Assembly: GCA_016180725.1 (NCBI GenBank)
Contig: JACPAR010000014.1
Location: forward strand, 1-58,345
From: Candidatus Levyibacteriota bacterium
Lineage (GTDB): Bacteria > Patescibacteriota > Microgenomatia > Levybacterales > UBA12049
DNA length: 58,345 nucleotides
Direction of reading: 5' to 3'
Part shown: in pieces, positions 4,438-24,648 of the stretch
How the letters are laid out: every line of letters starts with the position of its first letter
Numbering within the stretch: the stretch's first letter is position 1
Position numbers and translations under genes: made by a program
Notes under the pieces: generated by a model
Told to the model about the DNA's origin: nothing
The model's database searches: none
What the model saw: the letters and a program-made list of their open reading frames with translations, nothing else

Positions 4438-6414
<1,977 letters not shown>

Positions 6415-6461
6415 CTATAGAGATATTATACCAAATTTTGCTGAAATTTTCCAGAAGAAAT

Positions 6462-7721
6462 TTATGTTCCTTCTTGCCAACTGGAGAGATATTTTTTTTG
6501 TTCGCCTGTTAGCCTATCGATGCTGACTCCCATTGCCTTTAACTTAAGCATTGCGATTGTTTGGTCGAGTTTTTTTGGCAAAACATAGACTTTGTTTTTT
6601 AATTTCCCTTTGTTTTTAACAAGCCATTCTGCTGCTAGTGCTTGGTTGGCAAAACTCATATCCATAACTTCTGCAGGATGTCCCTCGGCTGCTCCCAAAT
6701 TTACCAATCTTCCTTGAGCTAAAAGATAGATTTTTCGTCCGTTTGGCAATACATATTCTTCCAAATTGTTTCTCATGGTTCTTTTTGACTTTTTTATTTT
6801 TTCCATGTAGGCAACATCAATTTCAACATCAAAATGGCCGGTGTTAGATAAAACAACGCCGTCTCTCATGTTTTCAATTTGGCTTGAATTAATAACGTGT
6901 TTGTTGCCGGTAGCAGTTATTATAATGTCCGCAATTTTTAAAGCAGAACTTAATTTCATTACTCTAAATCCATCCATAACAGCCTCTAAAGCTTTTACCG
7001 GATCAACTTCGGTTACGATAACATTTGCTCCCATACCTTTTGCTCTTGATGCTACTCCACGAGCACACCAGCCATAGCCAACAACCACAAAAGTTTTTCC
7101 GGCCAAAAGCATATTGGTTGCTCTTATTATTCCATCGATTGATGATTGACCTGTTCCATATCTATTGTCAAACATATGTTTAGTATCGCTATCGTTTACT
7201 GCAATAACCGGAAACTCCAGTTTTTTGTCTTTTTCCATTGCTTTAAGCCTTATAACTCCGGTTGTTGTTTCTTCGCTTGAGCCGATAATTTCTTTATTCT
7301 GGTTTTTTCTGTCTTTATGAAGAAGCGTTACCAAATCTGCACCGTCATCCATAGTAATTTGCGGATGGAAATCTAAAACCTGATTAAGATGTTTGTAATA
7401 AGTTGTATTGTCCTCCCCTCTTATAGCAAAGGTTGGAATATCATAATTTATTGCTAAAGAAGAAGCCACTTCGTCTTGGGTAGAAAGCGGATTTGAAGCA
7501 CAAAGCGCAACTTTTGCGCCACCTTTTTTTAGGGCAATTACTAAATTTGCCGTTTCTGATGTTACATGTAAACAAGCGCCGATTGTTAATCCTTTTAAGG
7601 GTTTTTCTTTTTCGAAGCGCTCCGAAATTAATCGAAGCACACGCATTTGCTGCATTGCCCACTCAATCTTTAGTTTTCCTTTGTCTGCAAGCTTAATGTC
7701 TTTTACGTCGTAGTTAGTCAT
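6462..7721 (-). CDS. ahcY: Adenosylhomocysteinase
   Basis: 419 aa, with DVKDIKLADKGKLKIEWA, the NAD-binding VVGYGWCARG(V)A, and the C-terminal LTGEQKKYL. Confidence 0.93.
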   Translation of the reverse strand: MTNYDVKDIKLADKGKLKIEWAMQQMRVLRLISERFEKEKPLKGLTIGACLHVTSETANLVIALKKGGAKVALCASNPLSTQDEVASSLAINYDIPTFAIRGEDNTTYYKHLNQVLDFHPQITMDDGADLVTLLHKDRKNQNKEIIGSSEETTTGVIRLKAMEKDKKLEFPVIAVNDSDTKHMFDNRYGTGQSSIDGIIRATNMLLAGKTFVVVGYGWCARGVASRAKGMGANVIVTEVDPVKALEAVMDGFRVMKLSSALKIADIIITATGNKHVINSSQIENMRDGVVLSNTGHFDVEIDVAYMEKIKKSKRTMRNNLEEYVLPNGRKIYLLAQGRLVNLGAAEGHPAEVMDMSFANQALAAEWLVKNKGKLKNKVYVLPKKLDQTIAMLKLKAMGVSIDRLTGEQKKYLSSWQEGT

Positions 7722-11548: not shown

Positions 11549-13342
11549 ATGCCCGATTTACAAAATGGTTCTAATCAAGTACAAAATTCGCCTCAACAGC
11601 CAAGCTTAAATGGGGTTGTTCAAGATCAATCAATTTCAACACAACCCCAAACTATAGTTGATATGCTTTTTTCAGATCACCTCGTTACTCCAGAGCAGTA
11701 CGAGGAAATAAAGGTTAAAAGTGCTTCGGAGAATAAGTCACCGGAAACTATTCTACGGGAAATGAATATTGTTTCGGGCGATAAGATTATTCAGGCAAAA
11801 GCTAAGATTCTCGGCGTGCAATTTATTTCTTTAGATACTACCTCTTTTTCTCCTCAAGCCATGAGCTTTATTCCAAGAGCAGTGGCTGAACGTTTTAATC
11901 TTATACCGTTTTTATATGACGAAAAAACAAAAACTCTTTCAATTGCCATGAGTAATCCGGCCGATTTAGACGCGCTTTCTTTTGTTAGGCAAAAAACAGG
12001 GCTTTTGGTCAAACAATTTGCTGCTTCTTTAGCGGATGTAAAAAAAGCAATCGTACAACAATATCGCCAAGAACTTGTAAGCGAAGTTGGACTCGCTCTT
12101 AAGGAAACAGAAGAACAAGACAAGGCAAAAACAATAGACAGTTCTCAAATATCACAAATAATTAAAGATGCGCCTATTGCAAAAATAGTATCTACTATTT
12201 TAGAGTATGCGGTAAATAGCAGGGCTTCGGATGTGCATATTGAGCCTCAGGAAGATAGAGTTAGAGTTCGTTATAGAATAGATGGTATTTTGTATGATCG
12301 GTTGAGCCTGCCGGTAAGTGTACGCGAATCAGTTACTTCACGCATTAAAATCTTATCCAGCATGAAGATAGATGAGCATCGTACTCCTCAAGACGGCAGG
12401 TTTAATTTTAAAGTTGGCGAAAGCGAGGTAGATCTTCGTATCTCTGTTTTGCCAACGGTGTTTGGTGAAAAAATAGTTATGAGACTTCTTAGAAAATCAG
12501 GCGGTATACCAACTCTAACAGATCTTGGGCTAGGTGGTACTGCTTTAAAAAATTTGGAAACAGCAATACTACGTCCGCACGGTATTATTATTGTTTGCGG
12601 GCCAACAGGAAGTGGTAAAACAACTACGCTTTATGCTCTTTTATCCAGACTTAATACAACACGTGTAAATATTTCATCACTTGAAGATCCGGTTGAGTAC
12701 CAAATATCAGGAGTAAATCAGGTGCAAATAAATCCTGGCGTTGGTCTTACTTTTGCTACAGGGCTGCGTGCGTTTTTAAGACAAGATCCTAATATAATTC
12801 TGGTAGGTGAAATTAGAGACAACGAAACTACCGATTTAGCTCTTCAGGCATCTCTTACGGGACATTTGGTTTTTTCAACGTTGCATACTTCAAACGCTGC
12901 CGGCGTACTGCCAAGACTTATAGATTTGGGAGCAGAACCTTTTCTTCTAGCTTCCACTATGAATGCGATGGTTGGGCAAAGAATCGTTAGAAAAATTTGT
13001 CAGCAGTGTAAAGAAGCATATACCCCGCCTCCTCAAATCGTTGAGGAAATAAAAGCTATTTTAGGCAAGCTTTTTCCGAAAGAAAATGCGGAAATAAAAT
13101 TATACAAAGGAAAAGGATGCATCGAGTGTGGAAACTCAGGTTATATTGGCAGGATGGGAATATTTGAGGTATTAACTGTTTCTGAAAAAATTGCGCAGCT
13201 TATTTTAGAGCATCCGGATAGTGCTACAATTGAAAAGCAGGCAGTACTTGAAGGAATGATTACCATGAAACAGGATGGTTATCTTAAGGTATTGCAAGGC
13301 GTTACAAGTATAGAGGAAGTATTAAGAGTAGCACAGGAATAA
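11549..13342 (+). CDS. pilB: Type IV pilus assembly ATPase PilB (GspE family)
   Basis: 597 aa. N-terminal T2SSE_N-like domain, Walker A GPTGSGKTT, and the tetracysteine CQQC...CIECGNSGY. Confidence 0.93.
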   Translation: MPDLQNGSNQVQNSPQQPSLNGVVQDQSISTQPQTIVDMLFSDHLVTPEQYEEIKVKSASENKSPETILREMNIVSGDKIIQAKAKILGVQFISLDTTSFSPQAMSFIPRAVAERFNLIPFLYDEKTKTLSIAMSNPADLDALSFVRQKTGLLVKQFAASLADVKKAIVQQYRQELVSEVGLALKETEEQDKAKTIDSSQISQIIKDAPIAKIVSTILEYAVNSRASDVHIEPQEDRVRVRYRIDGILYDRLSLPVSVRESVTSRIKILSSMKIDEHRTPQDGRFNFKVGESEVDLRISVLPTVFGEKIVMRLLRKSGGIPTLTDLGLGGTALKNLETAILRPHGIIIVCGPTGSGKTTTLYALLSRLNTTRVNISSLEDPVEYQISGVNQVQINPGVGLTFATGLRAFLRQDPNIILVGEIRDNETTDLALQASLTGHLVFSTLHTSNAAGVLPRLIDLGAEPFLLASTMNAMVGQRIVRKICQQCKEAYTPPPQIVEEIKAILGKLFPKENAEIKLYKGKGCIECGNSGYIGRMGIFEVLTVSEKIAQLILEHPDSATIEKQAVLEGMITMKQDGYLKVLQGVTSIEEVLRVAQE

Positions 13343-13353
13343 AATAAATTTAA

Positions 13354-13455
13354 AGTTCAAAATTAAAAGTTATCCTTCGATTGTACTCAGGCCTTCGGCT
13401 CTGAAAGCATATTTCAGGCTCTTGAAGAGATAATACTGAGCGAAGTCGAAGTATT
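13354..13455. repeat. Structured intergenic repeat, copy 2 (102 bp)
   Basis: An inverted, perfect match to 4316-4434 once that copy's two internal duplications are removed. It lies between pilB and pilT and abuts the pilT N-terminal coding sequence. Confidence 0.9.
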
Positions 13456-13498
13456 TCAGGATTTATTAAGTTTAACTATCAAAAATAATGCATCGGAT

Positions 13499-14515
13499 TT
13501 GCATCTGATTACAGGTATTCCACCGTCTGTTAGGATTGATGGTTCACTTACCTATCTTTCAAATTATACCCCATTAAGCGGAGAGGATATAGAATCAATG
13601 GTTTACTCCCTTTTAACACCGGAGCAAAAAGAATTATTGCTTGCAAATAAAGAGCTTGATTTTTCTTTCGGATTTGGCCAGGGAGCTTATGGTGATACAG
13701 GAAGATTTCGTATAAATGCTTATTATCAAAGAGGATATTTGTCTGCGGCATTGCGTTTTTTGCCGCCGGTTATAAAAACTATAGATGATCTTCGTTTGCC
13801 TAAAATTTGTCATAGTTTTGCTAAATTAAGGCAAGGCTTTGTTTTGGTGGTTGGCCCTACGGGACATGGAAAATCGACTACATTGGCTGGTATTATAAAC
13901 GAAATAAATCTTACAAAGGATTGCCATATTCTAACTATCGAAGACCCAATTGAGTACATATATCCTAAAGGTAAAAGTATATTTTCTCAAAGAGAAATGG
14001 GAATAGATACTCATTCTTGGACACTTGCTTTGCGTTCGGCTTTAAGAGAAGATCCGGACGTGGTTTTAGTTGGCGAAATGAGAGACGCAGAAACAATGGC
14101 AGCGGCAATTACCATTGCAGAAACAGGTCATTTGGTTTTTTCTACCCTTCACACAAACTCGGCATCTCAAAGTGTAGATAGAATCATTGATTCTTTTCCC
14201 AGCCATCAGCAGGGGCAAATACGGTCGCAATTGGCCTTAACGTTAAAAGGGATTGTTTCTCAAAGACTTTTGCCTCAAATTAATGGCGGTAGAGTTCCTG
14301 CCGTTGAGATACTTATCGGCACATCGGCTGTAGCAAGTAATATTAGAGAGGGAAAATCTCACCTTATAGATTCGGTCATACAAACATCTCAGGAAGTTGG
14401 CATGATAACTCTTGAGTCATCTCTTGCGCAGCTGGTGCTTTCCGGATCAATTAGTCTTGAGGTAGCAAAAAGTTACGCAATTCATCAGGATGAACTCTCC
14501 AGAATGGTAGGATAA
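13499..14515 (+). CDS. pilT: Twitching-motility (retraction) ATPase PilT; the start codon is uncertain
   Basis: 338 aa from TTG 13499, with Walker A GPTGHGKST and LVGEMRD. The frame stays open upstream to 13367 and encodes ...FQDLLSLTIKNNASDLHL, a typical PilT N-terminus, but has no canonical start codon. Confidence 0.88.
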   Translation: MHLITGIPPSVRIDGSLTYLSNYTPLSGEDIESMVYSLLTPEQKELLLANKELDFSFGFGQGAYGDTGRFRINAYYQRGYLSAALRFLPPVIKTIDDLRLPKICHSFAKLRQGFVLVVGPTGHGKSTTLAGIINEINLTKDCHILTIEDPIEYIYPKGKSIFSQREMGIDTHSWTLALRSALREDPDVVLVGEMRDAETMAAAITIAETGHLVFSTLHTNSASQSVDRIIDSFPSHQQGQIRSQLALTLKGIVSQRLLPQINGGRVPAVEILIGTSAVASNIREGKSHLIDSVIQTSQEVGMITLESSLAQLVLSGSISLEVAKSYAIHQDELSRMVG

Positions 14516-14516
14516 T

Positions 14517-15722
14517 ATGAAGTTGGTCTACAGGGTAACCACAAGAGATGGAAAGATAATGAAAGGGGTCATTGAGGCAAAAGGTATAAACGAGGCAGCA
14601 GCATATCTAAGAACAAAAAACCTTTTGCCGATTAGTATTACGTTAAAAGAAAATACAGGCATTGCTAATTTTTTTAATTTCTTAAATAAATCAAATGAGG
14701 CAGATCTGGTATTTTTTACAAGACAAATTGCATCAATGCTTACATCCGGATTAACTCTAGTACAGTCTCTTTCTATCCTTAAAGACCAGGTTCAAAATCC
14801 TTTTATGGCAGAAACGGTTAGTAACATTTTAAGCGATATCGAGGAAGGAAAAACTTTTTCTTTTGCAATTACAAAATATCCAAACATATTTACCTCGATT
14901 TATGTTTCTCTTATTCAGGCAGCGGAAACATCAGGACTTTTGGATAAAGTACTTTTTCGTCTTGCAGAAAATTTGGAAAAACAGCAAAAACTTAAAAGCA
15001 CAATTAAAGGGGCGCTTCTCTACCCTGCAATTGTAATTACGGGTATGATTATTGTAATGGTTATTATGATGATATTTGTTATTCCCCAGCTCTCTGTGCT
15101 TTATGACAATCTTAATATTCCTTTGCCGTTACCTACCAAGATTGTTGTAGGAATATCAAAATTTACCATTGTATTTTGGCCGTTGGTTTTTGCTTTAATT
15201 GTTTTGTTTATATTTTTGTATAAACGTTGGTATGCAACTGAATCGGGTAAGCTTATTGTAGATGATTTAACGCTTAAAACTCCTGTGTTTGGTAAGATTA
15301 TAAGACAGTCTATTCTTACGGAATTTACCAGGACTTTAGGGCTTTTAATCGGTAGTGGTACTTTAATCGTCGAGTCGCTAAAAGAAACTTCAAGCTCTGC
15401 CGGTAACATATTGTATCGAAGTGCAATAGAAGGAGTTAGTAGGAGGGTTGAAAAAGGCGTTGGAATTGCGGATGCAATGTCTGTGTCCCCCCTTTTCCCC
15501 CCTATCGTGGTTCAGATGGTAAAAATAGGAGAACAAACCGGAAAGGTTGATGAATCGCTTACAAAACTCTCCGAATATTTTGAGCGGGAGGTAGATCAAT
15601 CTGTAAAAACGTTAACAACAGCAATGGAGCCATTTATCATGGTTATTCTTGGAATTGGAGTTGCATTTTTAATTATTTCGATTATTACTCCAATATATAA
15701 TCTTACGACTGCAATCAAATAA
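14517..15722 (+). CDS. pilC: Type IV pilus platform protein PilC (GspF family)
   Basis: 401 aa. Two GspF repeats and three TM segments; FTRQIASMLTSGL.. and FTRTLGLLIGSG.. motifs. Confidence 0.92.
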   Translation: MKLVYRVTTRDGKIMKGVIEAKGINEAAAYLRTKNLLPISITLKENTGIANFFNFLNKSNEADLVFFTRQIASMLTSGLTLVQSLSILKDQVQNPFMAETVSNILSDIEEGKTFSFAITKYPNIFTSIYVSLIQAAETSGLLDKVLFRLAENLEKQQKLKSTIKGALLYPAIVITGMIIVMVIMMIFVIPQLSVLYDNLNIPLPLPTKIVVGISKFTIVFWPLVFALIVLFIFLYKRWYATESGKLIVDDLTLKTPVFGKIIRQSILTEFTRTLGLLIGSGTLIVESLKETSSSAGNILYRSAIEGVSRRVEKGVGIADAMSVSPLFPPIVVQMVKIGEQTGKVDESLTKLSEYFEREVDQSVKTLTTAMEPFIMVILGIGVAFLIISIITPIYNLTTAIK

Positions 15723-15767: not shown

Positions 15768-16550
15768 ATGCAAAATTTTAGCTTGGTTTCCAGTAGATCA
15801 CAAAAAATTTTAGAAGGACTAATTCTTGCTTTATTAACTCTTGTTGTTTACCTATTTACGATAAATCCCCTAACAAAACCTTATGCAATATATGCTTTAG
15901 TTTTGTGTCTTGCCCTTTTAGGAATTATTAATTTTGTATTTATTAAATTTGTTAAAAAACCCGCAGACAAGTTAGTTGAAAAAAATACATTCAGAATACT
16001 TATTTTTACAATAACAACGGCTGTTTTACTGTGGGTTGGTAGTACGGGGTGGTTTTTGTCGCCGTTTTTTTATCTACTTTATCTTCTTGCAATATCGCTT
16101 GGATTTCTTTTTAGTACATCGGTTTCCTTTTCTTTTATTTTGGTCCTTATTGGAGTATTGCTTCCCAATATCGGCTCAATCAGTTCGGGACTCGATCTTG
16201 TTTCGTTATTATCTTTACTCCTTATGGTTCCCCTATCCTACTTTTTGCGAAGAGAGTATTTGCGCAGAATAGAGAGAGAAAAAAAGATTTTAATTTTACA
16301 AGAAGAACATAAAACATTCGAAAATAAAGTTGAAGAAATTTTGTCAAATAAAGTCAGTAAAATTGCAACAGACTTGCGTGAGCCTCTTAATGATATTAAA
16401 CAACTCGCGATTTACATTCAAAAAACGGCGACAAAAAATGAAAAAGAAAAGATAAAAAGAGTTATTAATTCAAGTGAAAAAGCGCTGCAAAAACTAAAGG
16501 ACTTTGAAGAAGAGACAACAGGGAAAATACTTGTTGAAACGAAGCAATAG
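15768..16550 (+). CDS. Polytopic membrane protein with a C-terminal DHp-like (HisKA-like) coiled coil that lacks the phospho-accepting His
   Basis: 260 aa with about 5-6 TM helices. After these, KVSKIATDLREPLNDIKQL aligns with the HisKA box SHELRTPL, with Asp in place of His. There is no ATPase domain. Confidence 0.5.
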   Translation: MQNFSLVSSRSQKILEGLILALLTLVVYLFTINPLTKPYAIYALVLCLALLGIINFVFIKFVKKPADKLVEKNTFRILIFTITTAVLLWVGSTGWFLSPFFYLLYLLAISLGFLFSTSVSFSFILVLIGVLLPNIGSISSGLDLVSLLSLLLMVPLSYFLRREYLRRIEREKKILILQEEHKTFENKVEEILSNKVSKIATDLREPLNDIKQLAIYIQKTATKNEKEKIKRVINSSEKALQKLKDFEEETTGKILVETKQ

Positions 16551-16553
16551 ATC

Positions 16554-16928
16554 TTACTGTTGTAAAGTTTTTTTTACATCTTCGAGTAACTGATCTGGCG
16601 TAATATCCGTTTTTATTATATACGAAGTTGCTCCTTTATCTATCGCCTCTTTTACAATGGAGTCATGAGCAAGATTTGTAAGAAGTAAAATCGGACCGTT
16701 TTTTGTTGCCGGCGGGTTTTGGCTTAGTGACGTTAATACTCCCAATCCGTCCAGCCTTGGCATAACAACATCTAAAAGAGTAAGATCATATCCGCCTTGT
16801 TGTAGTTTTGTTAAGCCGTCAACGCCATCTTCTGCAGTTTCTACGGCGTAACCTGCATCTTTAAGAACTTCTTCATACAGTTCCCGAAGATATTGGTCAT
16901 CATCAACAATTAAAACCCTCTGCGCCAT
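16554..16928 (-). CDS. Single-domain response regulator (CheY-like receiver)
   Basis: 124 aa, with VLIVDDD, the phospho-acceptor context LLDVVMP, and a conserved T/K region. No output domain. Confidence 0.9.
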   Translation of the reverse strand: MAQRVLIVDDDQYLRELYEEVLKDAGYAVETAEDGVDGLTKLQQGGYDLTLLDVVMPRLDGLGVLTSLSQNPPATKNGPILLLTNLAHDSIVKEAIDKGATSYIIKTDITPDQLLEDVKKTLQQ

Positions 16929-17020: not shown

Positions 17021-17049
17021 TTGAATTAAGCTCAGGAATATCATATAAT
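17021..17049 (+). promoter_or_regulatory. Sigma-70-like promoter for the acyltransferase-E1 fusion gene
   Basis: TTGAAT (17021-17026), a 17-nt spacer, then TATAAT (17044-17049), 40 nt upstream of the ATG at 17089. Confidence 0.5.
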
Positions 17050-17088: not shown

Positions 17089-19014
17089 ATGACAAGTAAT
17101 ACTGAATTAAGTTTATTACAGGAATCTGCTATAAATGCTGATCAGGTAATTAGAAATACGAGAGTTTTGGCGGCAACAACGCCTGAATTGCAGCAGCAGG
17201 CAAATAGACTTGTGGCACAAGGTTATCGTAACCTTGCTAATCCCCCACTAGATTTAAATGAAGTATGCAAAGATCTTGTTCTTGATGGTTACAATAGCGA
17301 AGGCCGTTCTGCAACAATAATTACTTTAACAAAAAATCCCTGTACCGGTGAGGAATCGATTTCTGGAACAGTTAGGGTTGTCTTTGGAGCAGAGCAAAGA
17401 AATCCAGGTGATCCTGAGCCAATTGATGCAATGCATTTATTATCAACTCTAAACTGGCCTCATGAAGAACAAGGCTTAAGCGTAGCTCAAATTGCGGAGT
17501 TAGGTAGATTTGCAATTCCTTCTGAATTTAGGATTGATGCTATGTTAAAAAATGGTGTGGATACCGCAATTACCCGAATGCTTTTTGATGAGGCAGTTCG
17601 TGTTGCAAGAGCTCGAGGGATTGAAATGCTTTATGCAATAATGCCAGGCTACGTTAAAAGAATTACGCAGCGAGCCGATATTAATTCCGTTGAAATTGGT
17701 GGTGTTACCCTTAGAGATACCCCTTCTGCTAATGAAATCTTTAACAGATATAACGTTTACTGGCATAGAGGAGGTCCTAAACTTTATTTATTTTCTGATT
17801 TTCCTTTAAGAAATGGCCAAATAAAGGGAGACGACGCAACATCATTTCTTGCAACGCATGTGGAAACACCTGGAAGACAGATTAAAGAAAATACTATTCC
17901 ACATGTAAATCTTTTTCCAATTGCGGAAGCAGAAGCAAGAAAAGTATTTATGGAAGCATTAATTTCTCTTCCTAAGGCTGAAAGCCTTGCGGAATGGAGT
18001 TCTAGCGATCCTGAGGCAATATATAATGAAGCAAAAGTAAGGGGAATAGTTGTTGATAATCTTGATGTTCAATTAAGAGATGCTGTTAAAACTGGAGTTT
18101 TATCTCAAGAAGAAGCTAAAACGCATTATGGTACATTTGTTGAGTATCCTTGGAAAGTTAAAGGGAGGTTTGTAAGAGTTTTAAATCATGAACAATTTTA
18201 TCAATTAGCGTTTTCTCGCAATAGACATGTAATTTCTGAGCAAGGTCAGGAAAGATTAAAAAATGCACGCATTGGAATAATCGGTCTTGGTGTTGGTAGT
18301 GCTTGTGGATATCTCCTTGTGCTTTCTGGTGCAGAGCATATTAAAATATGCGAAGGTGGATTGCAGCAAGTGCACCGTCATAATCGGGCAATAGGCTCTG
18401 ATACTTCCAAAGTTGGTATGAATCAGGGAAAACTTTGGGCAGAATTAGCTTTAAAAGTAAATCCATATATAGAAATTTCTGGTAATACTCAAAATTTGGG
18501 TAACGGTGAAGACGAGGCAAGTATAGAGGAATTTCTTAGTGGACTCGATATGGTTATTGAGGCGGTTGACTCATTGCCTGCGAAACTTCAAGTACGATTG
18601 GAAGCAAGAAGAAAAGATTTAATGGCGCAAAATGACCGTTTTATTCCCTTAGTAACAATGCCTTCTGATTTAGGTTTTGCTGGTTTATATCAAGGTGAAG
18701 ACTCTGGTTCGCCAGTTTTTCAAGGAAGAATGCCAGATGATTTAATTAAATTATTGCAAAGCGGACAACAAGAATTTGACCTTACAACAAAAACTGCGAT
18801 TGCTGCTTCTGTTATAGGAGTAAAAAATATTCCTCCTAGTTATTTACAGGCTTTACAAGAAGGAAACGCTGCTGGAACTCCGTTTTGGCCACAACCTGGA
18901 GTAGCTGCATTTCTTTCTGCATCAATGCTTACAGCAGCTGTTATTAGACGTCTTGAAGGAAAAGCCGTTAAAGACGAGATGATGATAGACTTAGATCGGT
19001 TATTAACACCATAG
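17089..19014 (+). CDS. Fusion protein: an N-terminal FeeM/LuxI-like N-acyltransferase (GNAT-clan) domain plus a C-terminal ThiF/MoeB/E1-like adenylyltransferase domain
   Basis: 641 aa. Residues about 40-240 (GTVRVVFG..., AELGRFAIPSEFR, MLYAIMPGYVKRITQRADINSVEIGG) look like N-acyl amino acid / autoinducer synthases. Residues about 375-480 (FSRNRHVISEQGQERLKNARIGIIGLGVGSACGYLLVLSGAEHIKI...HNRA...KVNPYIEI) carry the ThiF Rossmann signature. Confidence 0.65.
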   Translation: MTSNTELSLLQESAINADQVIRNTRVLAATTPELQQQANRLVAQGYRNLANPPLDLNEVCKDLVLDGYNSEGRSATIITLTKNPCTGEESISGTVRVVFGAEQRNPGDPEPIDAMHLLSTLNWPHEEQGLSVAQIAELGRFAIPSEFRIDAMLKNGVDTAITRMLFDEAVRVARARGIEMLYAIMPGYVKRITQRADINSVEIGGVTLRDTPSANEIFNRYNVYWHRGGPKLYLFSDFPLRNGQIKGDDATSFLATHVETPGRQIKENTIPHVNLFPIAEAEARKVFMEALISLPKAESLAEWSSSDPEAIYNEAKVRGIVVDNLDVQLRDAVKTGVLSQEEAKTHYGTFVEYPWKVKGRFVRVLNHEQFYQLAFSRNRHVISEQGQERLKNARIGIIGLGVGSACGYLLVLSGAEHIKICEGGLQQVHRHNRAIGSDTSKVGMNQGKLWAELALKVNPYIEISGNTQNLGNGEDEASIEEFLSGLDMVIEAVDSLPAKLQVRLEARRKDLMAQNDRFIPLVTMPSDLGFAGLYQGEDSGSPVFQGRMPDDLIKLLQSGQQEFDLTTKTAIAASVIGVKNIPPSYLQALQEGNAAGTPFWPQPGVAAFLSASMLTAAVIRRLEGKAVKDEMMIDLDRLLTP

Positions 19015-19096: not shown

Positions 19097-21253
19097 ATGG
19101 ATTTTTTTGTCGTGCTTTTAACGGCAGCTGTTAATATAGTTCTTGGACTTTTTAGTTATATAAAAAATCCAAAAAGTAATACTAATAAACTCTTAGCAAT
19201 TTTAACTTTTATTTTAGCTTTTTGGTCTATAGCTAATTATTATTCTCTTAATTCTCCGACAGAAGAACAAACACTATTCTGGGTTCGAATGGTAATGCTT
19301 ATTACCTCTCCTTTGGGGCCGGTTATATTTCTTTTTCTTTCAGTTTTTCCAAAAAGTGAATTGCAAATAAAAAAAACGACATTAATTATTCTAATAATGG
19401 CAACATTTTCAGTTGCTTCGATTTCGTTTACTCCTTTAATGTTTTCAAAGGTAGATATAACAAATGGCGTACATCCAACTCCCGGGATTGGTCTTATGTT
19501 CTACGGAATATTATTAATTGGGTCACTTATTGCCGGTTTTAAAGTTATTTTTGAAAAATACAAAAAATCTGCAGGTATAATAAAACAACAGCTACAATAT
19601 TTAGTTTTAGGCGTAATAGTTACATTTACTCTTCAAGCATTTACTAATTTTGTTTTAGTAGTTTTTAATGTGTCTTTTCTTGTAGTATTGGGTCCTACTT
19701 TCTCATTAGTATTAGTTGGATTTATTTTCTATGCAATTATTAAACATAGATTTTTAGATATACGTTTAGTTGTTGCTAGGACAGTTGCGTATACATTACT
19801 TGTTTTATCTATTGCTGTTTTTTATGTATTGGTTGTATTTAACTTTAGTGAATTAATTCTTGGAAAAAGCATTGATGCAAACCAAGCTTATGCATATTCT
19901 GTTGTTACGCTTCTTATTGCCTTTACATTTCAGTCAATTAAACACGTTTTGCAGGGCATAACAGATAAGATTTTTTATAAAGATATTTATGATCCTCAAA
20001 AGCTTATAAAAGATTTTTCCGAAATAATGAATTCTACAATAGATTTAGCTGCCCTTACTTTAAATATTTTAGAAAAAGTTAGACAGGATATGAAGGTAAC
20101 AAAAGGCGCATTTGTGCTTCTGTCTAAGAATAATAACCAGGTAATAGAATACATTGAGCAAAAGGGGTACGATCAGGTTCCGGACATCTCAATAGAAGTT
20201 ATTAATACATTTTATACCGATAAAAGCCTTATTATTCTGGATGAATTGGAGGAAGGCTTTCTTAAAGAATTAATGAGAAACTTAAATGCTACAGCAGTTT
20301 TAAAGCTTGAAGTAAATGCAAAAAGAATAGGTATATTGTTTTTGGGAGAAAAAGCATCCGGCGACATCTATTCTCAGCAGGATGTCGAAATTGCTATACA
20401 AAATTCCCAGGAGTACGAAGAAATTAAACAGTTTAACGTAACTTTAAAAGAAAAAGTCGAAAGAGAAACAAGACAACTTACGCAAGCAAACGAAAAACTA
20501 AAAGAGCTGGACAAGCTTAAAGATGAGTTTGTATCCCTGGCTTCTCATGAATTACGAACTCCCATGACGGCAATTAAATCATATCTTTGGATGGCAATAG
20601 CCGGAAAGGGCGGAGAACTTTCGGAAAAGCAAAAATATTATTTAGACAGAGCATATAATTCGACAGACCGCTTAATTAAACTTGTTAACGATATGTTAAA
20701 TGTGTCGCGAATAGAATCAGGTAGAATTAAATTAGAAGTAATTAAAGTATCGATACAACGATTGTTGCGGGATGTAGTCGAAGAACTATTGCCAAGAGCG
20801 CAGGAATTAGGTATTACTCTGCAGTTAGTTTGTCCTCAGGTATTGCCCGATGTAATGGCAGACGGAGATAAAATTAAAGAAGTAATAATAAATTTAATTG
20901 GTAATTCTCTTAAATTCACACCTCAGGGCGGTTCGATTACTCTTTCCTGTCTAGAAAAAAATGAAATGCTCGAAATAAAAGTATGCGATACGGGAGAAGG
21001 TTTAAGCGGAGACGACATGCAAAGACTTTTTCAAAAATTCGGTATTTTAGGAAATGATATTTTAAAGAAAAAAAACAATCAGGGAACGGGTCTTGGCCTT
21101 TATATTTCTAAATCAATTATAGAACTTCATGGAGGAAAAATATGGGCGCAGTCCGAAGGACTTGGAAAGGGCGCAACTTTTACTTTTACTTTGCCGATAT
21201 TTAAAAAAGAAGGCGTAAATATAGTTTCTGCACCGGTTGCGCCAAACAATTAA
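19097..21253 (+). CDS. Sensor histidine kinase with a multi-TM N-terminal sensor (7TM-type), a central GAF-like region, HisKA and HATPase_c
   Basis: 718 aa with about 7-8 TM helices. H-box SHELRTPMTAI, N-box NLIGNSLKFT, G-boxes DTGEGL / GTGLGL. Confidence 0.9.
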   Translation: MDFFVVLLTAAVNIVLGLFSYIKNPKSNTNKLLAILTFILAFWSIANYYSLNSPTEEQTLFWVRMVMLITSPLGPVIFLFLSVFPKSELQIKKTTLIILIMATFSVASISFTPLMFSKVDITNGVHPTPGIGLMFYGILLIGSLIAGFKVIFEKYKKSAGIIKQQLQYLVLGVIVTFTLQAFTNFVLVVFNVSFLVVLGPTFSLVLVGFIFYAIIKHRFLDIRLVVARTVAYTLLVLSIAVFYVLVVFNFSELILGKSIDANQAYAYSVVTLLIAFTFQSIKHVLQGITDKIFYKDIYDPQKLIKDFSEIMNSTIDLAALTLNILEKVRQDMKVTKGAFVLLSKNNNQVIEYIEQKGYDQVPDISIEVINTFYTDKSLIILDELEEGFLKELMRNLNATAVLKLEVNAKRIGILFLGEKASGDIYSQQDVEIAIQNSQEYEEIKQFNVTLKEKVERETRQLTQANEKLKELDKLKDEFVSLASHELRTPMTAIKSYLWMAIAGKGGELSEKQKYYLDRAYNSTDRLIKLVNDMLNVSRIESGRIKLEVIKVSIQRLLRDVVEELLPRAQELGITLQLVCPQVLPDVMADGDKIKEVIINLIGNSLKFTPQGGSITLSCLEKNEMLEIKVCDTGEGLSGDDMQRLFQKFGILGNDILKKKNNQGTGLGLYISKSIIELHGGKIWAQSEGLGKGATFTFTLPIFKKEGVNIVSAPVAPNN

Positions 21254-21319: not shown

Positions 21320-21847
21320 ATGAAAAAAATTAGATCATCTGCTGGTTTTACCCTTATAGAACTTTTGGTTGTTATTGGTATTTTAGGAATTTTAGCTTCT
21401 TCCCTTATTGCCACAATTGATCCTTTTGAGCAGTTAAAAAAAGGTCAGGATGCAAATGTTAAAAATACTGCAGCCGAATTTGTTAACGCCAATATTCGTT
21501 TCTATACTACTCATAATGAACTGCCTTGGGTAAATAATTCAACCTGCTCTTCCGAGGCTGGTGGTACAACACCTTCTGCTAAAAATTTAGCCGGGATGAC
21601 AACAGGGTGTTTAGGAGCATTAGTAGGCGATGGAGAGTTAAAGCCTGGTTTTACAACAGTTACTAATACTCTTAAAGAAATTTTGGTATCAGGTAACGCG
21701 AATGACGTAATTGCATGCTTTAAGCCACAATCAAAAGCTCAGCAAAGAGACGCTAATACAATTTATAACAGCAGCGGAACAGCGACAACCGGATGTGCTT
21801 CAACTTCTGGTTCATCAGGCACATATTGCTACTGGTGCGCAAAATAA
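21320..21847 (+). CDS. pilA: Type IV pilin; candidate major pilin
   Basis: 175 aa. Prepilin leader MKKIRSSAG | FTLIELLVVIGILGILA with Glu5. Ser/Thr/Gly-rich, Cys-containing C-terminus. Stand-alone, with an upstream AT-rich region that contains TTGAC motifs. Confidence 0.85.
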   Translation: MKKIRSSAGFTLIELLVVIGILGILASSLIATIDPFEQLKKGQDANVKNTAAEFVNANIRFYTTHNELPWVNNSTCSSEAGGTTPSAKNLAGMTTGCLGALVGDGELKPGFTTVTNTLKEILVSGNANDVIACFKPQSKAQQRDANTIYNSSGTATTGCASTSGSSGTYCYWCAK

Positions 21848-21854
21848 ACATTGA

Positions 21855-23903
21855 ATGTCAGGACTAGGTAAAATAAAAAGGTGGAGTATAATAGCTCCAC
21901 TTATTTTATTTTTAGTAACATTTTTAATATACCTTCATAACTTATCTTCTAGTGTATATGGTGGAGATGTAGGAGACTTTTTAATTGCTGTAGCTGTAAA
22001 AGGTGTTGCTCATCCATCCGGTTATCCACTATTTACAATAATTGGAATTATACTTAGCTATATTCCGCTTAATCAAACCTTAGCCTGGAAAGTTGGGCTT
22101 ATTTCTGCCTTTTTTTCTTCTCTTGCTGTAGTTTTGATGTATTTAATCTCAAAACTTCTTACAAAAAATGTTTTAGTGAGTATAATTACTGCGTTAACAC
22201 TTGCTTTCTATTATACTTTTTGGCTCTATGCAGAAGTTGCGGAAGTGTTTGCTTTAAATAACTTTTTTATTCTGCTTTTATTGTTTTTCTCATTACTTTA
22301 TTTTAAAAAAAAGAAAATAAAATTTTTATATTTTTTGATCTTTTTCGCAGGGTTATCTTTGTCAAATCATGAAGTAATTCTTCTTATTTTTCCGTCGCTC
22401 TTTGTTTTGATGTTAAAAACAGATTGGAAAATTTTATTAGAGCCAAAAACTCTCTTAAAATGCTTGTTGTTATTTTTTCTTGGGTTTCTACCTTATGTTT
22501 ATATTCCATTTGCTGCTTTAAATAATCCTAGCCCCCCATTGGATTGGGTAGGAAAAGTTACGTTCGAAAATATATTGAAAGTAATACTTCGCCAAGACTA
22601 TGGTTGGGCGCCCAGTAAAATCCCCTTTTCTTATATCCATTTATTATCTCTCAAGACTTATTTTAAGGTTTTACTAATAGGTTTGACCCCTGCAGTAGTT
22701 ATAAATTCTGTTTTAGGAATGATTTATTTGCTAAAAAAAAGAAGTATTAATGTATTTTTATTTCTTATTTCAGCATTTATCTTAACAGGGCCAGTTGCAA
22801 TTTTTTATGTTAATACTCCAATTTTTAGCAGCTTTACTTTTGGAGTTTTAGAAAGATTTTATATGATTTCCGCATTAATTTTACTAATTTTTTTTCCTTT
22901 TGGAATTCTTTTTATTGTTGGTGTTATTCAAAAAGTCTTAACACTTTTGTCTTTTGCTGTAAATAAAAAAACTTATTACAAAAATCATTTTTATTTTATA
23001 TTTTTTATTATCCCCATTTCTCTATTTATGAGTAATTATCCTAAAACTGATTTACATAATGTTTGGAATGGTGATTATCTTGCAATGGATGCATTGTTGT
23101 CTTTACCTCAAAAGAGTACGCTTTTTTTAAGTGGAGATACAATACTTTTTGATACAATCTATCTTCAGCATGCTTTGGGAGTACGTAAAGATGTGATTGT
23201 AATTAACATTGGGAGAATAGAAAAAGATAAAAATTACCTTAGAAGAAAAGAGGAAATATCAAGGGAAAAAAATATACCAAAAGATTCATTAGATGCCTAT
23301 ACGCTTGTATCTTTATTAAATAAAAATAATGTTTTTTCAAATGTTTCGATAGGTTATAAAAATAAAAAATTTAAAAATCCAAATTGGATGCCTTATGGTT
23401 TGTTGCTTAAGTCTGTTGTAAATGGTAAAGAAATTAATAAAGCTTTATTCATAAATCAACAAGATAAGATTTTAAATAGTTTTAGATTTGCTGTAAGAGA
23501 AAAAAAGCTTTCTGAAAAAAATAGTACTATTTCTGAGATTCCAACCTTATATTCACAAGCTTATGTAAACACGGGCAATTATTTAGTCTCAGAGTATAGC
23601 GATGAAGAAAAAGCGAGAGAATATTACCAAAAGGCTATCAGTTTTGCACCAGAAGAATCTGGAGGATATATGGGTTTAGGTTATTATTATTTAAGTAAAA
23701 ATGATTGTGAAAATGCCGAAAAAACATTTAATAAAGTAATTTCTTTAAATCCAGGAAATAAAAGCGGATATGTCTTATTATATGCTACTTATGATGATTG
23801 TTTTAAAGACGTACAAAAAACAAAGCTGTTTGCTAAAGATTTTTATTCGTTATTTAAAACTTCAATAATTGAAGAAATGAAAAAAGAGATTACTAAAGAA
23901 TAG
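21855..23903 (+). CDS. GT-C-fold membrane glycosyltransferase (DUF2723/TMEM260-like) with C-terminal TPR repeats
   Basis: 682 aa with more than 10 TM helices. The N-terminal motif GGDVGDFLIAVAVKGVAHPSGYPLF is typical of DUF2723. The C-terminal region has TPR-like repeats (AREYYQKAISFAP...AEKTFNKVISLNP). It starts 8 nt after the pilin stop. Confidence 0.7.
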   Translation: MSGLGKIKRWSIIAPLILFLVTFLIYLHNLSSSVYGGDVGDFLIAVAVKGVAHPSGYPLFTIIGIILSYIPLNQTLAWKVGLISAFFSSLAVVLMYLISKLLTKNVLVSIITALTLAFYYTFWLYAEVAEVFALNNFFILLLLFFSLLYFKKKKIKFLYFLIFFAGLSLSNHEVILLIFPSLFVLMLKTDWKILLEPKTLLKCLLLFFLGFLPYVYIPFAALNNPSPPLDWVGKVTFENILKVILRQDYGWAPSKIPFSYIHLLSLKTYFKVLLIGLTPAVVINSVLGMIYLLKKRSINVFLFLISAFILTGPVAIFYVNTPIFSSFTFGVLERFYMISALILLIFFPFGILFIVGVIQKVLTLLSFAVNKKTYYKNHFYFIFFIIPISLFMSNYPKTDLHNVWNGDYLAMDALLSLPQKSTLFLSGDTILFDTIYLQHALGVRKDVIVINIGRIEKDKNYLRRKEEISREKNIPKDSLDAYTLVSLLNKNNVFSNVSIGYKNKKFKNPNWMPYGLLLKSVVNGKEINKALFINQQDKILNSFRFAVREKKLSEKNSTISEIPTLYSQAYVNTGNYLVSEYSDEEKAREYYQKAISFAPEESGGYMGLGYYYLSKNDCENAEKTFNKVISLNPGNKSGYVLLYATYDDCFKDVQKTKLFAKDFYSLFKTSIIEEMKKEITKE

Positions 23904-23925
23904 GAAATTATAAGAATCAGGTCTT

Positions 23926-24648
23926 ATGAATCTTAATCATTTGTTTGTATTATTAGATCCAGAACGGTTTTATTTATACATAAATGCCCTATTTTATGCG
24001 GCATTTAAAGGAATATTGTTCTATAAACTTGAGTTTAAAGGAATGCTTAGTTTGCCTGAAGGTACTATTCTCCATAAGCATGCATGTTCACTTTCTAACA
24101 ATTCTGTAATAGTAGAAATAGGTTGCTACGGAGGCTTATCCACTGCCTATTTGTTATCTGGTTTAAATAATACTTCAACTGTTTACTCTATTGATCCTTT
24201 TAATAAAGATATCGATTTTCAAACAAAAGCCGTCCTAAAGGGAAGTAATTCTATATATAAACAGCAAGAGCTTATATCTCTAAACGATAAACCTAATAAA
24301 AAAGACGTAGAGATTGCATTAAAACGAAAAGGTTTTTCACGTTTTACTCTATTGCAGGATTACAGCTTTAATGTAATCAAAAATTGGTATAGAAAAATAG
24401 ATCTTTTATGGATTGATGGAAATCATGAATATAATCAGGTAAGAAAAGACTTTCTTCAATGGTCACCGTTTCTAAAAAAAGGAAAAGTAATTGTTTTTCA
24501 TGATGCAAATAAGACAAGTGCTAATAGTAATTGGGATATGGGATGGGATGGCCCTACAAGAGTTGTAAACGAAAATATAGTGCAGCCTAAGTGGATTAAT
24601 ATCAGAAAGATAGATTCAATGGTCTATGCAACAAAAAATTATGGATAA
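23926..24648 (+). CDS. Class I SAM-dependent methyltransferase (Methyltransf_24-like)
   Basis: 240 aa, with VEIGCYGGLSTAYL (motif I) and WIDGNHEYNQVRKD, characteristic of this subfamily. Confidence 0.7.
   Translation: MNLNHLFVLLDPERFYLYINALFYAAFKGILFYKLEFKGMLSLPEGTILHKHACSLSNNSVIVEIGCYGGLSTAYLLSGLNNTSTVYSIDPFNKDIDFQTKAVLKGSNSIYKQQELISLNDKPNKKDVEIALKRKGFSRFTLLQDYSFNVIKNWYRKIDLLWIDGNHEYNQVRKDFLQWSPFLKKGKVIVFHDANKTSANSNWDMGWDGPTRVVNENIVQPKWINIRKIDSMVYATKNYG

Follow-up and report, generated by a model that had tools for sequence, protein, structure and literature searches.

Acyl-oxazolones are made in bacteria by pathways that pair an N-acyl amino acid synthase with a ThiF-like cyclase. In Pseudoalteromonas rubra, OxzA makes N-acyl tyrosine from acyl-coenzyme A (acyl-CoA), and OxzB, a ThiF-nitroreductase fusion, carries out the ATP-dependent conversion of N-acyl tyrosine to the oxazolone (bioRxiv 10.1101/2020.06.11.147165). 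TyzACB (Rv2336/Rv2338c/Rv2337c) consists of TyzA, with a fold like that of FeeM and BjaI, the ThiF cyclase TyzB, which stands alone, and the flavin oxidase TyzC; a LuxI/FeeM-type GNAT fold has been reported for both TyzA and OxzA (PMC10404671). The TrzAS pathway consists of the acyltransferase Rv1356c and of Rv1355c (TrzS), a ThiF cyclase fused to a flavin oxidase; cyclisation precedes desaturation (a saturated cyclised intermediate accumulates with the oxidase disabled), and the substitution D217A in M. smegmatis TrzS abolishes cyclisation (PMC12856293). According to a 2025 review, no ThiF-like enzyme other than OxzB was known to have a small-molecule substrate (PMC12596934), and the 2025 TrzAS paper called the physiological role of oxazolones “a major unresolved question” (PMC12856293). 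Here we analyze a 58,345-nt stretch of DNA from Candidatus Levyibacteriota bacterium (contig JACPAR010000014.1; the whole stretch is hereafter called the window), in which a single gene (17089..19014, + strand, 641 aa, ATG start) joins a LuxI/FeeM-like acyltransferase domain to a ThiF-like cyclase half.

We put at roughly 55% the probability that this gene encodes a bifunctional acyl-oxazolone-type synthase, the product or precursor of which is sensed by the adjacent seven-transmembrane (7TM) histidine kinase, in a circuit located in a pilus locus. The original prediction, which had recognized both domains from the DNA letters, knew of no characterized counterpart; the pairing in fact matches the published OxzAB, TyzACB and TrzAS pathways, and the C-terminal half is a full-length homologue of the TrzS cyclase. 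The pairing itself is the known acyl-oxazolone pathway type with its first two activities in one chain, and only the fusion itself and the absence of a flavin oxidase are architecturally new; the fixed gene order of acyltransferase, cyclase and 7TM histidine kinase is a further new feature.

TrzA/TrzS resembles the window's protein in that an N-acyl amino acid synthase of LuxI/FeeM fold is paired with an ATP-dependent cyclase of ThiF type (the genes being adjacent and co-oriented), that the cyclase half is homologous over its full length, N-terminal subdomain and catalytic Asp included, and that a sensory signalling gene comes after the pair (GAF-GGDEF-EAL in Actinomycetota). It differs in that identity is only ~23%, the acyltransferase is separate and belongs to a very divergent family, and the partner fused to the cyclase is a flavin oxidase of nitroreductase type (FDO), whereas the cyclase of the window is fused to the acyltransferase, has no oxidase and has a 7TM histidine kinase as its neighbour. 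TyzACB and OxzAB likewise proceed from acyl-CoA and an amino acid to an N-acyl amino acid and then to ATP-dependent ThiF cyclization, and TyzB is a stand-alone ThiF protein like those of the split relatives in the window's clade, but a flavin desaturase (TyzC or the C-terminal domain of OxzB) is part of these pathways in every case, and their products are conjugated aromatic oxazolones. Neither a fusion of acyltransferase and cyclase nor a kinase neighbour is described in the TyzACB, OxzAB and TrzAS literature that we examined. FeeM (2G0B) and the TIGR03694 proteins share the fold and the E-x-G/S-R-F strand motif with the N-terminal domain, but they are stand-alone proteins, FeeM uses acyl-acyl carrier protein (acyl-ACP), and the N-terminal domain scores far below the cut-offs of these families. 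TcdA, the tRNA ct6A synthase, shares ThiF-like carboxylate adenylation and oxazolone ring closure (PMC12596934), but it acts on a tRNA nucleoside and is only weakly similar in sequence to the window's protein.

The two halves of the fused protein

The ThiF/E1 Rossmann adenylation domain and the C-terminal region following it (aa 376-641) occupy 18214..19011 on the + strand. Pfam ThiF (PF00899) matched aa 376-502 with 56.4 bits (cut-off 28.1 bits; 58.7 bits when the C-terminal segment was searched in isolation), in agreement with the original prediction, the C-terminal motifs of which (the Gly-rich loop IGIIGLGVGS, HNRA and KVNPYIEI) are all present. The best NCBIfam match of the protein was the Rv1355c family (98.5 bits, aa 320-639), all other families scoring 56 bits or less (ThiF 41.6 bits, MoeB 34 bits, and TcdA also far behind); the full-length cut-off of the Rv1355c family (476 bits) was not reached because the FDO half is absent. 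When an alignment of the C-half family (A4) was compared by hhalign with 14 TrzS-like ThiF-FDO proteins (A7), the two agreed over 346 columns (probability 100%, E=7e-51), and the alignment begins inside the N-terminal subdomain of the cyclase half. Motifs common to the C-half and the TrzS-like proteins are YPW, SRN/DRN and WPQ; the C-terminal region carries the clade motif FWPQPG. The adenylation residues are invariant in the C-half alignments: G399/G403 of the Gly loop, R377/N378 (SRN), N432/R433 and D494/K499 (EAVDSLPAK). D494 was aligned to D130 of MoeB and to the Asp of EECDSLDIK (residues 207-218) in the Mycobacterium and Mycolicibacterium homologues of TrzS; we infer that it is the equivalent of TrzS D217, the M. 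smegmatis position being deduced from the mycobacterial homologues.

A stretch of ~130 aa between the two domains, previously described as an unassigned linker, is in reality the N-terminal subdomain of the cyclase family (aa ~263-375; 17875..18213, + strand). It is present in the stand-alone ~400-aa cyclase proteins, which start ~20 residues past the end of the acyltransferase domain, and in the profile alignment with the TrzS-like proteins; its distal part (EYPWK..GRFVRVL..FSRNR) is common to TrzS-type enzymes. The junction proper lies at about aa 240-262 and was mapped to 17809..17874 (+ strand, aa ~241-262) from the alignments and from the stop and restart positions of the split relatives: at three of their loci (L001, L011 and L012) the acyltransferase gene has its end at ...LYQ(Y/F)..., with 0-13 nt between it and the start of the ThiF gene.

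This subdomain also bears on the reading that the ThiF half is an E1 of the type acting on peptides made by ribosomes and then modified post-translationally (RiPPs) or ubiquitin-like proteins (Ubl) (the MccB, PaaA and MoeB class), which would activate a peptide or protein C-terminus, with the GNAT domain as a modifier or immunity enzyme. In MccB and PaaA a peptide clamp sits N-terminal to the Rossmann fold, at the place where the window's protein has aa 263-375, and PaaA was the best PDB sequence match of the ThiF half (E=0.002; TcdA E=0.08-0.17). The matches to PaaA and MoeB are weak, however, and confined to the Rossmann core, whereas the full half is homologous to TrzS; the C-half alignment has no conserved Cys or CxxC motif; PDB and Pfam searches with the subdomain (aa ~263-375) found no relative and no RiPP recognition element (RRE); and the gene maps of the seven clade loci show no conserved extra small gene and hence no conspicuous candidate for a precursor peptide or Ubl, although no dedicated small-ORF (open reading frame) search was run. 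We rejected the RiPP/Ubl-type E1, which we regard as scarcely credible, on the full-length TrzS homology and the lack of both a Cys/CxxC motif and an RRE.

The N-terminal acyltransferase domain (aa 1-240; 17089..17808, + strand) is of the GNAT fold, LuxI/FeeM type, as originally proposed, the support coming from its fold and its motifs (profile comparison with the PDB, AlphaFold2 and Foldseek). The Pfam scan of the query domain gave no match, also when the segment was searched in isolation, and TIGR03694 (exosortase-associated acyltransferase), the only curated sequence model to match, did so weakly (E=2e-5 to 3.5e-4, 20-24 bits against a 112-bit cut-off). Word-indexed searches yielded very few family members. 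An exhaustive search of 1.84 billion representatives, on which the size of the family is based, returned 1,685 matches at E<=1e-3, and the match ranges form three sets: ~240-aa proteins covering aa ~15-238, ~400-aa proteins covering aa ~264-640, and one further full-length fusion (P0005). Among the relatives of the N-terminal domain, TIGR03694 matched 23 of 37 (best member E=1.2e-7), all under the cut-off, and weak Pfam matches to FeeM or Acetyltransf_5 were found in 3 of the 37. The domain is a distinct, undescribed family within the GNAT clan, outside the curated families.

The alignment of 38 proteins of this family (A2) showed invariant Y46, E137 (in AELGRF), Y224, W225 and P230 and near-invariant D66, R96, W123, R140 and P186 (R140 at least 90% conserved). 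The motifs originally quoted for the domain are present (GTVRVVFG at aa 93-100, AELGRFAIPSEFR at aa 136-148 and MLYAIMPGYVK from aa 180). Searched against the PDB, the 38-member profile matched acyl-homoserine lactone (AHL) synthases alone, EsaI (E=0.005) and then TofI, over the E-x-x-R-F strand and the next helix; the strand motif of AHL synthases, E-x-(S/G)-R-(F/L), is conserved in the domain and aligned to ESSRF of EsaI and ELSRF of TofI. The AlphaFold2 model built from the same alignment was of high confidence (predicted local distance difference test score (pLDDT) 92.6; predicted template modelling score 0.89), and Foldseek assigned it to the GNAT fold with probability 1.0, FeeM (2g0b), LasI (1ro5) and TofI (3p2h) being among the top matches; the template modelling scores were moderate (0.41-0.49; FeeM best, query score 0.49), and generic GNATs score alike.

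Some relatives of the N-terminal domain occur with other enzymes. Two loci encode a giant protein (L007:8805-12791 and L008:1988-5986; 1,329 aa or more) in which the E1 alpha and E1 beta parts of 2-oxoacid dehydrogenase, a lipoyl domain and FabH (KAS III) are joined to a further copy of the N-terminal domain; its gene adjoins a stand-alone N-domain gene as well as ECF-sigma, FecR-TonB-receptor and CHASE2 Ser/Thr kinase genes. An acyl-transfer role of the domain is backed by this arrangement, because 2-oxoacid dehydrogenase E1 and FabH, to which the copy is fused, are acyl-donor-generating enzymes. In a further locus (L009:4508-6959) a family member adjoins, in place of ThiF, a VAO-type flavin oxidase (Pfam FAD_binding_4), and in P0041 and P0042 the domain is apparently fused to such an oxidase, judging by the sequence alone; the combination might provide desaturated N-acyl amino acids by another route.

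The order of the two reactions was originally suggested to be activation of an acid by the E1-type domain as an acyl-adenylate, followed by transfer of the acyl group to an amine by the FeeM/LuxI-type domain, i.e., a self-contained amide synthetase. Both domains are present and appear to be catalytically intact, and a fusion implies channelling; but the acyl donors of LuxI, FeeM, TyzA, TrzA and OxzA are thioesters (acyl-ACP or acyl-CoA) rather than adenylates, and in every characterized homologous pair the order is the reverse, the acyltransferase acting first (with acyl-CoA) and the ThiF enzyme on its product. We therefore consider the amide synthetase very improbable. In an acyl-oxazolone-type synthase, the N-terminal domain would N-acylate a free amino acid with an acyl thioester (acyl-CoA, possibly acyl-ACP), as its homologues do. 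The ThiF-like half would then bind ATP and adenylate the N-acyl amino acid's alpha-carboxylate, and attack by the amide oxygen would close the ring to a 2-alkyl-oxazol-5(4H)-one.

Fusion and the missing flavin oxidase

Fusion is rare: two genes of the clade are fused (the window gene and P0005, from another sample), and at five loci acyltransferase and cyclase are encoded by split genes (L001, L011, L012, L016 and L017), which are adjacent in all five. P0005 shows 42% identity to the window's protein. Its ThiF half is nearest to the split genes of L011 and L012 (57% and 52%, respectively), and that of the window gene is nearest to the split gene of L001 (47%). Because the ThiF halves are nearest to different split genes and the two fusions share only 42% identity, these comparisons suggest that the fusions arose independently, which would in turn speak for a tight functional coupling of acyltransferase and cyclase.

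A tblastn search of the 58-kb window detected no FDO, and the flanks of the clade loci L011, L012 and L015-L018 showed none either. Since a nitroreductase-type flavin oxidase is neither fused nor nearby, the product is predicted to be a saturated oxazolone or a derivative of it, not a compound of the conjugated tyrazolone/tryptazolone type; saturated oxazolone species are what TrzS makes with its oxidase disabled (PMC12856293). Oxidase-free versions are not confined to the window's clade, because 10 of 36 Bacteroidota cassettes (described below) also lack an FDO gene: in these (L049, L059, L062, L065, L066, L068, L070, L075, L080 and L092, with the match at ~6001-7100 in each) the TrzS-like ThiF protein has ~360-440 aa and no FDO domain, no FDO gene lies within 6 kb, and the layout with acyltransferase and 7TMR-DISM kinase is the same. 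The fused, oxidase-free form would be a natural minimal oxazolone synthase and could reveal what a ThiF cyclase releases on its own. We also considered the N-terminal ~250 aa of ThiF-FDO proteins of ~900-970 aa (P0131 type) as the first part of a triple fusion of acyltransferase, cyclase and FDO; they have no detectable relation to the N-terminal domain of the window's protein.

Sensor genes beside the predicted synthase

Directly downstream of the fused gene, on the same strand and starting 83 nt after it, lies the gene of a 718-aa sensor histidine kinase (19097..21253, + strand; Pfam HisKA_7TM, HisKA and HATPase_c), which is the candidate cognate sensor. A single-domain CheY-like response regulator of 124 aa (16554..16928, - strand; Pfam Response_reg, 88 bits) is encoded divergently upstream. 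The first scan of reference genomes, seeded with the close C-half set, found no relative in 185,579 species genomes, and a JGI metagenome scan found one locus. The clade comprises the window and L001, L011, L012, L015, L016 and L017/18, one of which (L012) is on an 858-kb contig. The contig size, the low GC content and the occurrence of the family in metagenomes only would agree with an origin from CPR/Patescibacteria. The order acyltransferase, cyclase, HisKA_7TM kinase is conserved in 7/7 clade loci, down to 27% identity of the ThiF halves, and response regulators usually follow the kinase. If the window and L001 are excluded, all five assessable loci have a kinase with at least five transmembrane segments within three genes downstream, and in all five the acyltransferase is adjacent or fused.

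A second scan of reference genomes, with the TrzS-like alignment, gave 80 loci, which were annotated with hidden Markov models (HMMs) built in this analysis (gene calling and counting of transmembrane segments were by simple heuristics). Among the 36 assessable Bacteroidota loci, a kinase with at least five transmembrane segments was present within three genes downstream in 33 (any kinase in 35), a divergent response regulator upstream in 29, and an adjacent partner of ~230-270 aa in 32. The six of these kinases tested by Pfam all had 7TMR-DISMED2 and 7TMR-DISM_7TM domains, and the precomputed Pfam annotation of L013 and L014 is also 7TMR-DISM; the nearest TrzS-like matches of the window's protein, P0003 and P0004 (the latter from Panacibacter), are in a similar layout with a 7TMR-DISM kinase. 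The cassette, which was unannotated and was found here, consists of a divergent response regulator, ThiF(-FDO), an acyltransferase of ~230-270 aa, the 7TMR-DISM kinase, a hybrid histidine kinase/response regulator and a response regulator. In the 32 assessable loci of Actinomycetota no such multi-transmembrane kinase was found within three genes downstream, and a GGDEF-EAL-type protein was encoded directly downstream in 17, a count made with an HMM built on the GGDEF-EAL region of the three downstream proteins that Pfam had confirmed as GAF-GGDEF-EAL. The three assessable loci of Myxococcota/“delta” included one with a kinase of at least five transmembrane segments within three genes downstream and showed no other features.

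The partner protein of the Bacteroidota cassettes (family A8) gave no match in Pfam and PDB sequence searches. Compared with the N-terminal domain family by hhalign, it aligned with a probability of 84% (E=7e-6), i.e., as a remote homologue: the invariant Glu residues coincide, and the LYAIMP block lies opposite LF.LCAP. Single sequences of the partner genes aligned against the N-domain alignment were not significant, and the value of 84% was reached by the profile-profile comparison alone. The cassettes thus resemble the window in homologous ThiF halves, remotely homologous acyltransferases, a multi-transmembrane kinase immediately downstream and a divergent response regulator upstream; they differ in that the kinase is a 7TMR-DISM with an extracellular DISMED2 sensor, not a HisKA_7TM, acyltransferase and cyclase were never fused in the loci examined, and there are no pilus genes. 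In L013-L014 and most Bacteroidota loci among L019-L092, two more proteins are encoded after the 7TM kinase, a soluble hybrid receiver-kinase of ~360 aa and a receiver protein of ~135 aa; this suggests a multi-step phosphorelay downstream of a putative oxazolone sensor.

The neighbourhood survey thus shows a module order conserved in relatives, and a sensory transducer remains encoded directly beside the synthase although its family differs from group to group (HisKA_7TM, 7TMR-DISM and GAF-GGDEF-EAL). The idea of a signal synthase paired with a sensor gains from this synteny (7/7 clade loci and 33/36 Bacteroidota loci), and both domains on which it was originally built are supported, by profiles and, for the acyltransferase domain, by a structure model. 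Going by gene order, the oxazolone product or its N-acyl amino acid precursor would be the ligand of the downstream 7TM histidine kinase, which would signal via the adjacent response regulator and probably tune the type IV pilus locus. The enzymatic part of this reading has strong homology behind it; the signalling part draws on synteny, which supports, without proving, that oxazolone-type products are the ligands of dedicated sensors. A parallel exists in AHL quorum sensing (membrane kinase receptors of the LuxM/LuxN type and LuxI/LuxR pairs), where a synthase of GNAT fold is encoded beside its receptor and makes an N-acylated, ring-containing product, but the ring is there closed by S-adenosylmethionine-dependent lactonization, here by a predicted ATP-dependent step of ThiF type. 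The structural resemblance of oxazolones to AHLs has been noted (PMC12856293).

Several points weigh against a synthase-sensor circuit of this kind. The nitroreductase-superfamily partner oxidase of oxazolone cyclases is missing at the clade loci, and an FDO could lie elsewhere in the genome, beyond the 58 kb searched. None of the curated thresholds (Autoind_synth, FeeM, Acetyltransf_5 and TIGR03694) is reached by the N-terminal domain, the link of which to the Bacteroidota partner family stands at a probability of 84% from profile comparison, and single-sequence AlphaFold2 prediction of the full protein gave an unusable model (pLDDT 35), so that the assignment of the C-terminal half is sequence-based. 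A saturated 5(4H)-oxazolone is reactive and prone to hydrolysis and would be an odd diffusible signal. The kinase may also be adjacent because the two-component system controls the synthase and does not sense its product. Finally, the pilus link, part of the original prediction, extends to only 3/5 assessable loci: pilus genes surround the module in the window, PilB and PilC come after it in L012 and PilB does so in L011, but L016 and L017 have no pilus or pilin genes.

The kinase adjacency can also be read in the sense that the product is a non-signalling metabolite (for instance a lipid that protects from stress or acts against microbes, a role discussed for tyrazolones), the kinase sensing another input and controlling the synthase operon. 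Antibiotics induce oxazolone production and oxidative stress has been connected with the tyz genes (PMC12856293; bioRxiv 10.1101/2020.06.11.147165), N-acyl tyrosine derivatives can be antimicrobial (PMC12856293), and bacteria exposed to oxazolones showed no phenotype (bioRxiv 10.1101/2020.06.11.147165). Such a metabolite is nonetheless distinctly unlikely: at every clade locus the synthase gene immediately precedes that of the kinase on the same strand, and synthase and transducer remain neighbours in different phyla although the family of the transducer differs, a pattern more usual for a ligand and its receptor than for a generic regulator.

The missing oxidase and the pilus genes are what another reading starts from: N-acylation and ThiF adenylation would be the same, but the activated adenylate or oxazolone would be captured by an amine of pilin, a lipid, peptidoglycan or a second amino acid, resulting in a lipo-amino-acid or lipopeptide modification of the envelope or pilus, and the two-component system would regulate expression only. 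Saturated azlactones are acylating agents, a desaturase that would stabilize the ring is absent at the clade loci, and in the window the kinase is followed by genes of pilin, a TMEM260-like glycosyltransferase and a methyltransferase; ThiF-like enzymes pass an activated carboxylate to varied nucleophiles (PMC12596934). On the other side, no conserved acceptor or transferase gene stands beside the module in the seven loci, the sole constant partner is the sensor kinase (L016 and L017 being devoid of pilin and pilus genes), and the characterized homologues release free oxazolones. Capture of the product is in our opinion rather unlikely, and the synthase-sensor circuit remains the preferred reading.

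If this circuit is generalized, oxazolone-type N-acyl amino acid derivatives may represent an unrecognized class of bacterial signals, each with an acyltransferase/cyclase synthase and an adjacent dedicated transducer, of which the window would hold a version with an oxidase-free, single-polypeptide synthase and a saturated oxazolone or N-acyl amino acid autoinducer controlling type IV pili; we advance this wider proposal tentatively and see the odds as somewhat against it. The term “histidine kinase” is absent from the ThiF review (PMC12596934) and the OxzAB preprint (bioRxiv 10.1101/2020.06.11.147165), and our literature search found no paper that joins oxazolone, ThiF and histidine kinase, nor one that connects either of the first two with the last. 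Were the proposal true, HisKA_7TM and 7TMR-DISM, two large families of orphan 7TM sensor kinases, would gain a candidate class of ligands, and mycobacterial oxazolones a function. The window holds a variant that is fused, oxidase-free and hard-wired to a kinase, and its main value is a testable hypothesis on what oxazolones are for; the synthase-sensor order makes their role experimentally approachable in culturable Pedobacter, Chitinophaga, Dyadobacter and Algoriphagus, and a self-made signal wired into a type IV pilus locus would be notable for an organism with a possibly reduced genome.

Gene setting and further observations

The HMMs of the N-terminal domain and of the C-half match only the fused gene among the ORFs of the window. 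Because the identical 641-aa protein was called on 7 contigs from at least 5 sequencing runs, the long ORF is not an assembly artefact. Its GC content, given earlier as ~40% from a 100-nt sample and as no different from housekeeping genes, is ~37.5-38% against roughly 34% typical of the window (read from a 1-kb profile). The promoter-like site TTGAAT-17-TATAAT (17021..17049, + strand; 10/12 consensus matches) is present as described, in the 160-nt divergent intergenic region between response regulator and fused gene, but it is weak evidence and adds no weight, as promoter-like sites in this AT-rich region are below the expectation from shuffles (10 found against 18.2 expected). The Rfam scan of the window returned no RNA family.

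The neighbours are those first described (divergent response regulator, 7TM kinase, pilin and upstream pilus genes, all according to Pfam). Type IV pilus genes (PilT-like and PilC) occupy 11549..15722 on the + strand (T2SSE/T2SSF in the precomputed Pfam annotation of identical contigs), their first ORF (11549..13342, + strand) being PilB-like as named from its sequence, and a type IV pilin of 175 aa (21320..21847, + strand; Pfam N_methyl) follows directly after the kinase. Between PilC and the response regulator lies the gene of a 260-aa protein with several transmembrane segments (15768-16550, + strand), the C-terminal part of which resembles a histidine-kinase H-box without the His (IATDLREPLNDIKQL); it gave a weak match to GGDEF (E=0.03) and none in precomputed Pfam, and it could be a degenerate sensor or an accessory of the same circuit.

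Downstream of the kinase at two of the clade loci, the two response-regulator genes are separated by a conserved ORF of 61 aa (L011:4680-4865 and L012:12392-12577). Its start is H-box-like (…NSHDLLGKL…), it reads as helical and it has no Pfam match; it may be a mini phosphotransfer protein (like the dimerization and histidine phosphotransfer (DHp) or histidine-containing phosphotransfer (Hpt) domains), in which case the module would be a phosphorelay. At the most divergent clade locus (L017:11471-13270) a gene of the Trp-repressor family and one resembling anthranilate synthase (Chorismate_bind) come after the kinase, a faint hint at an aromatic or tryptophan-related amino acid as substrate, as in TrzAS. 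In the window itself, the genes directly after the pilin (21855-24648, + strand) encode a 682-aa membrane glycosyltransferase (TMEM260-like/PMT_2) that has TPR repeats and then a Methyltransf_24 protein (240 aa), which may be a pair for the glycosylation or other modification of pilin.

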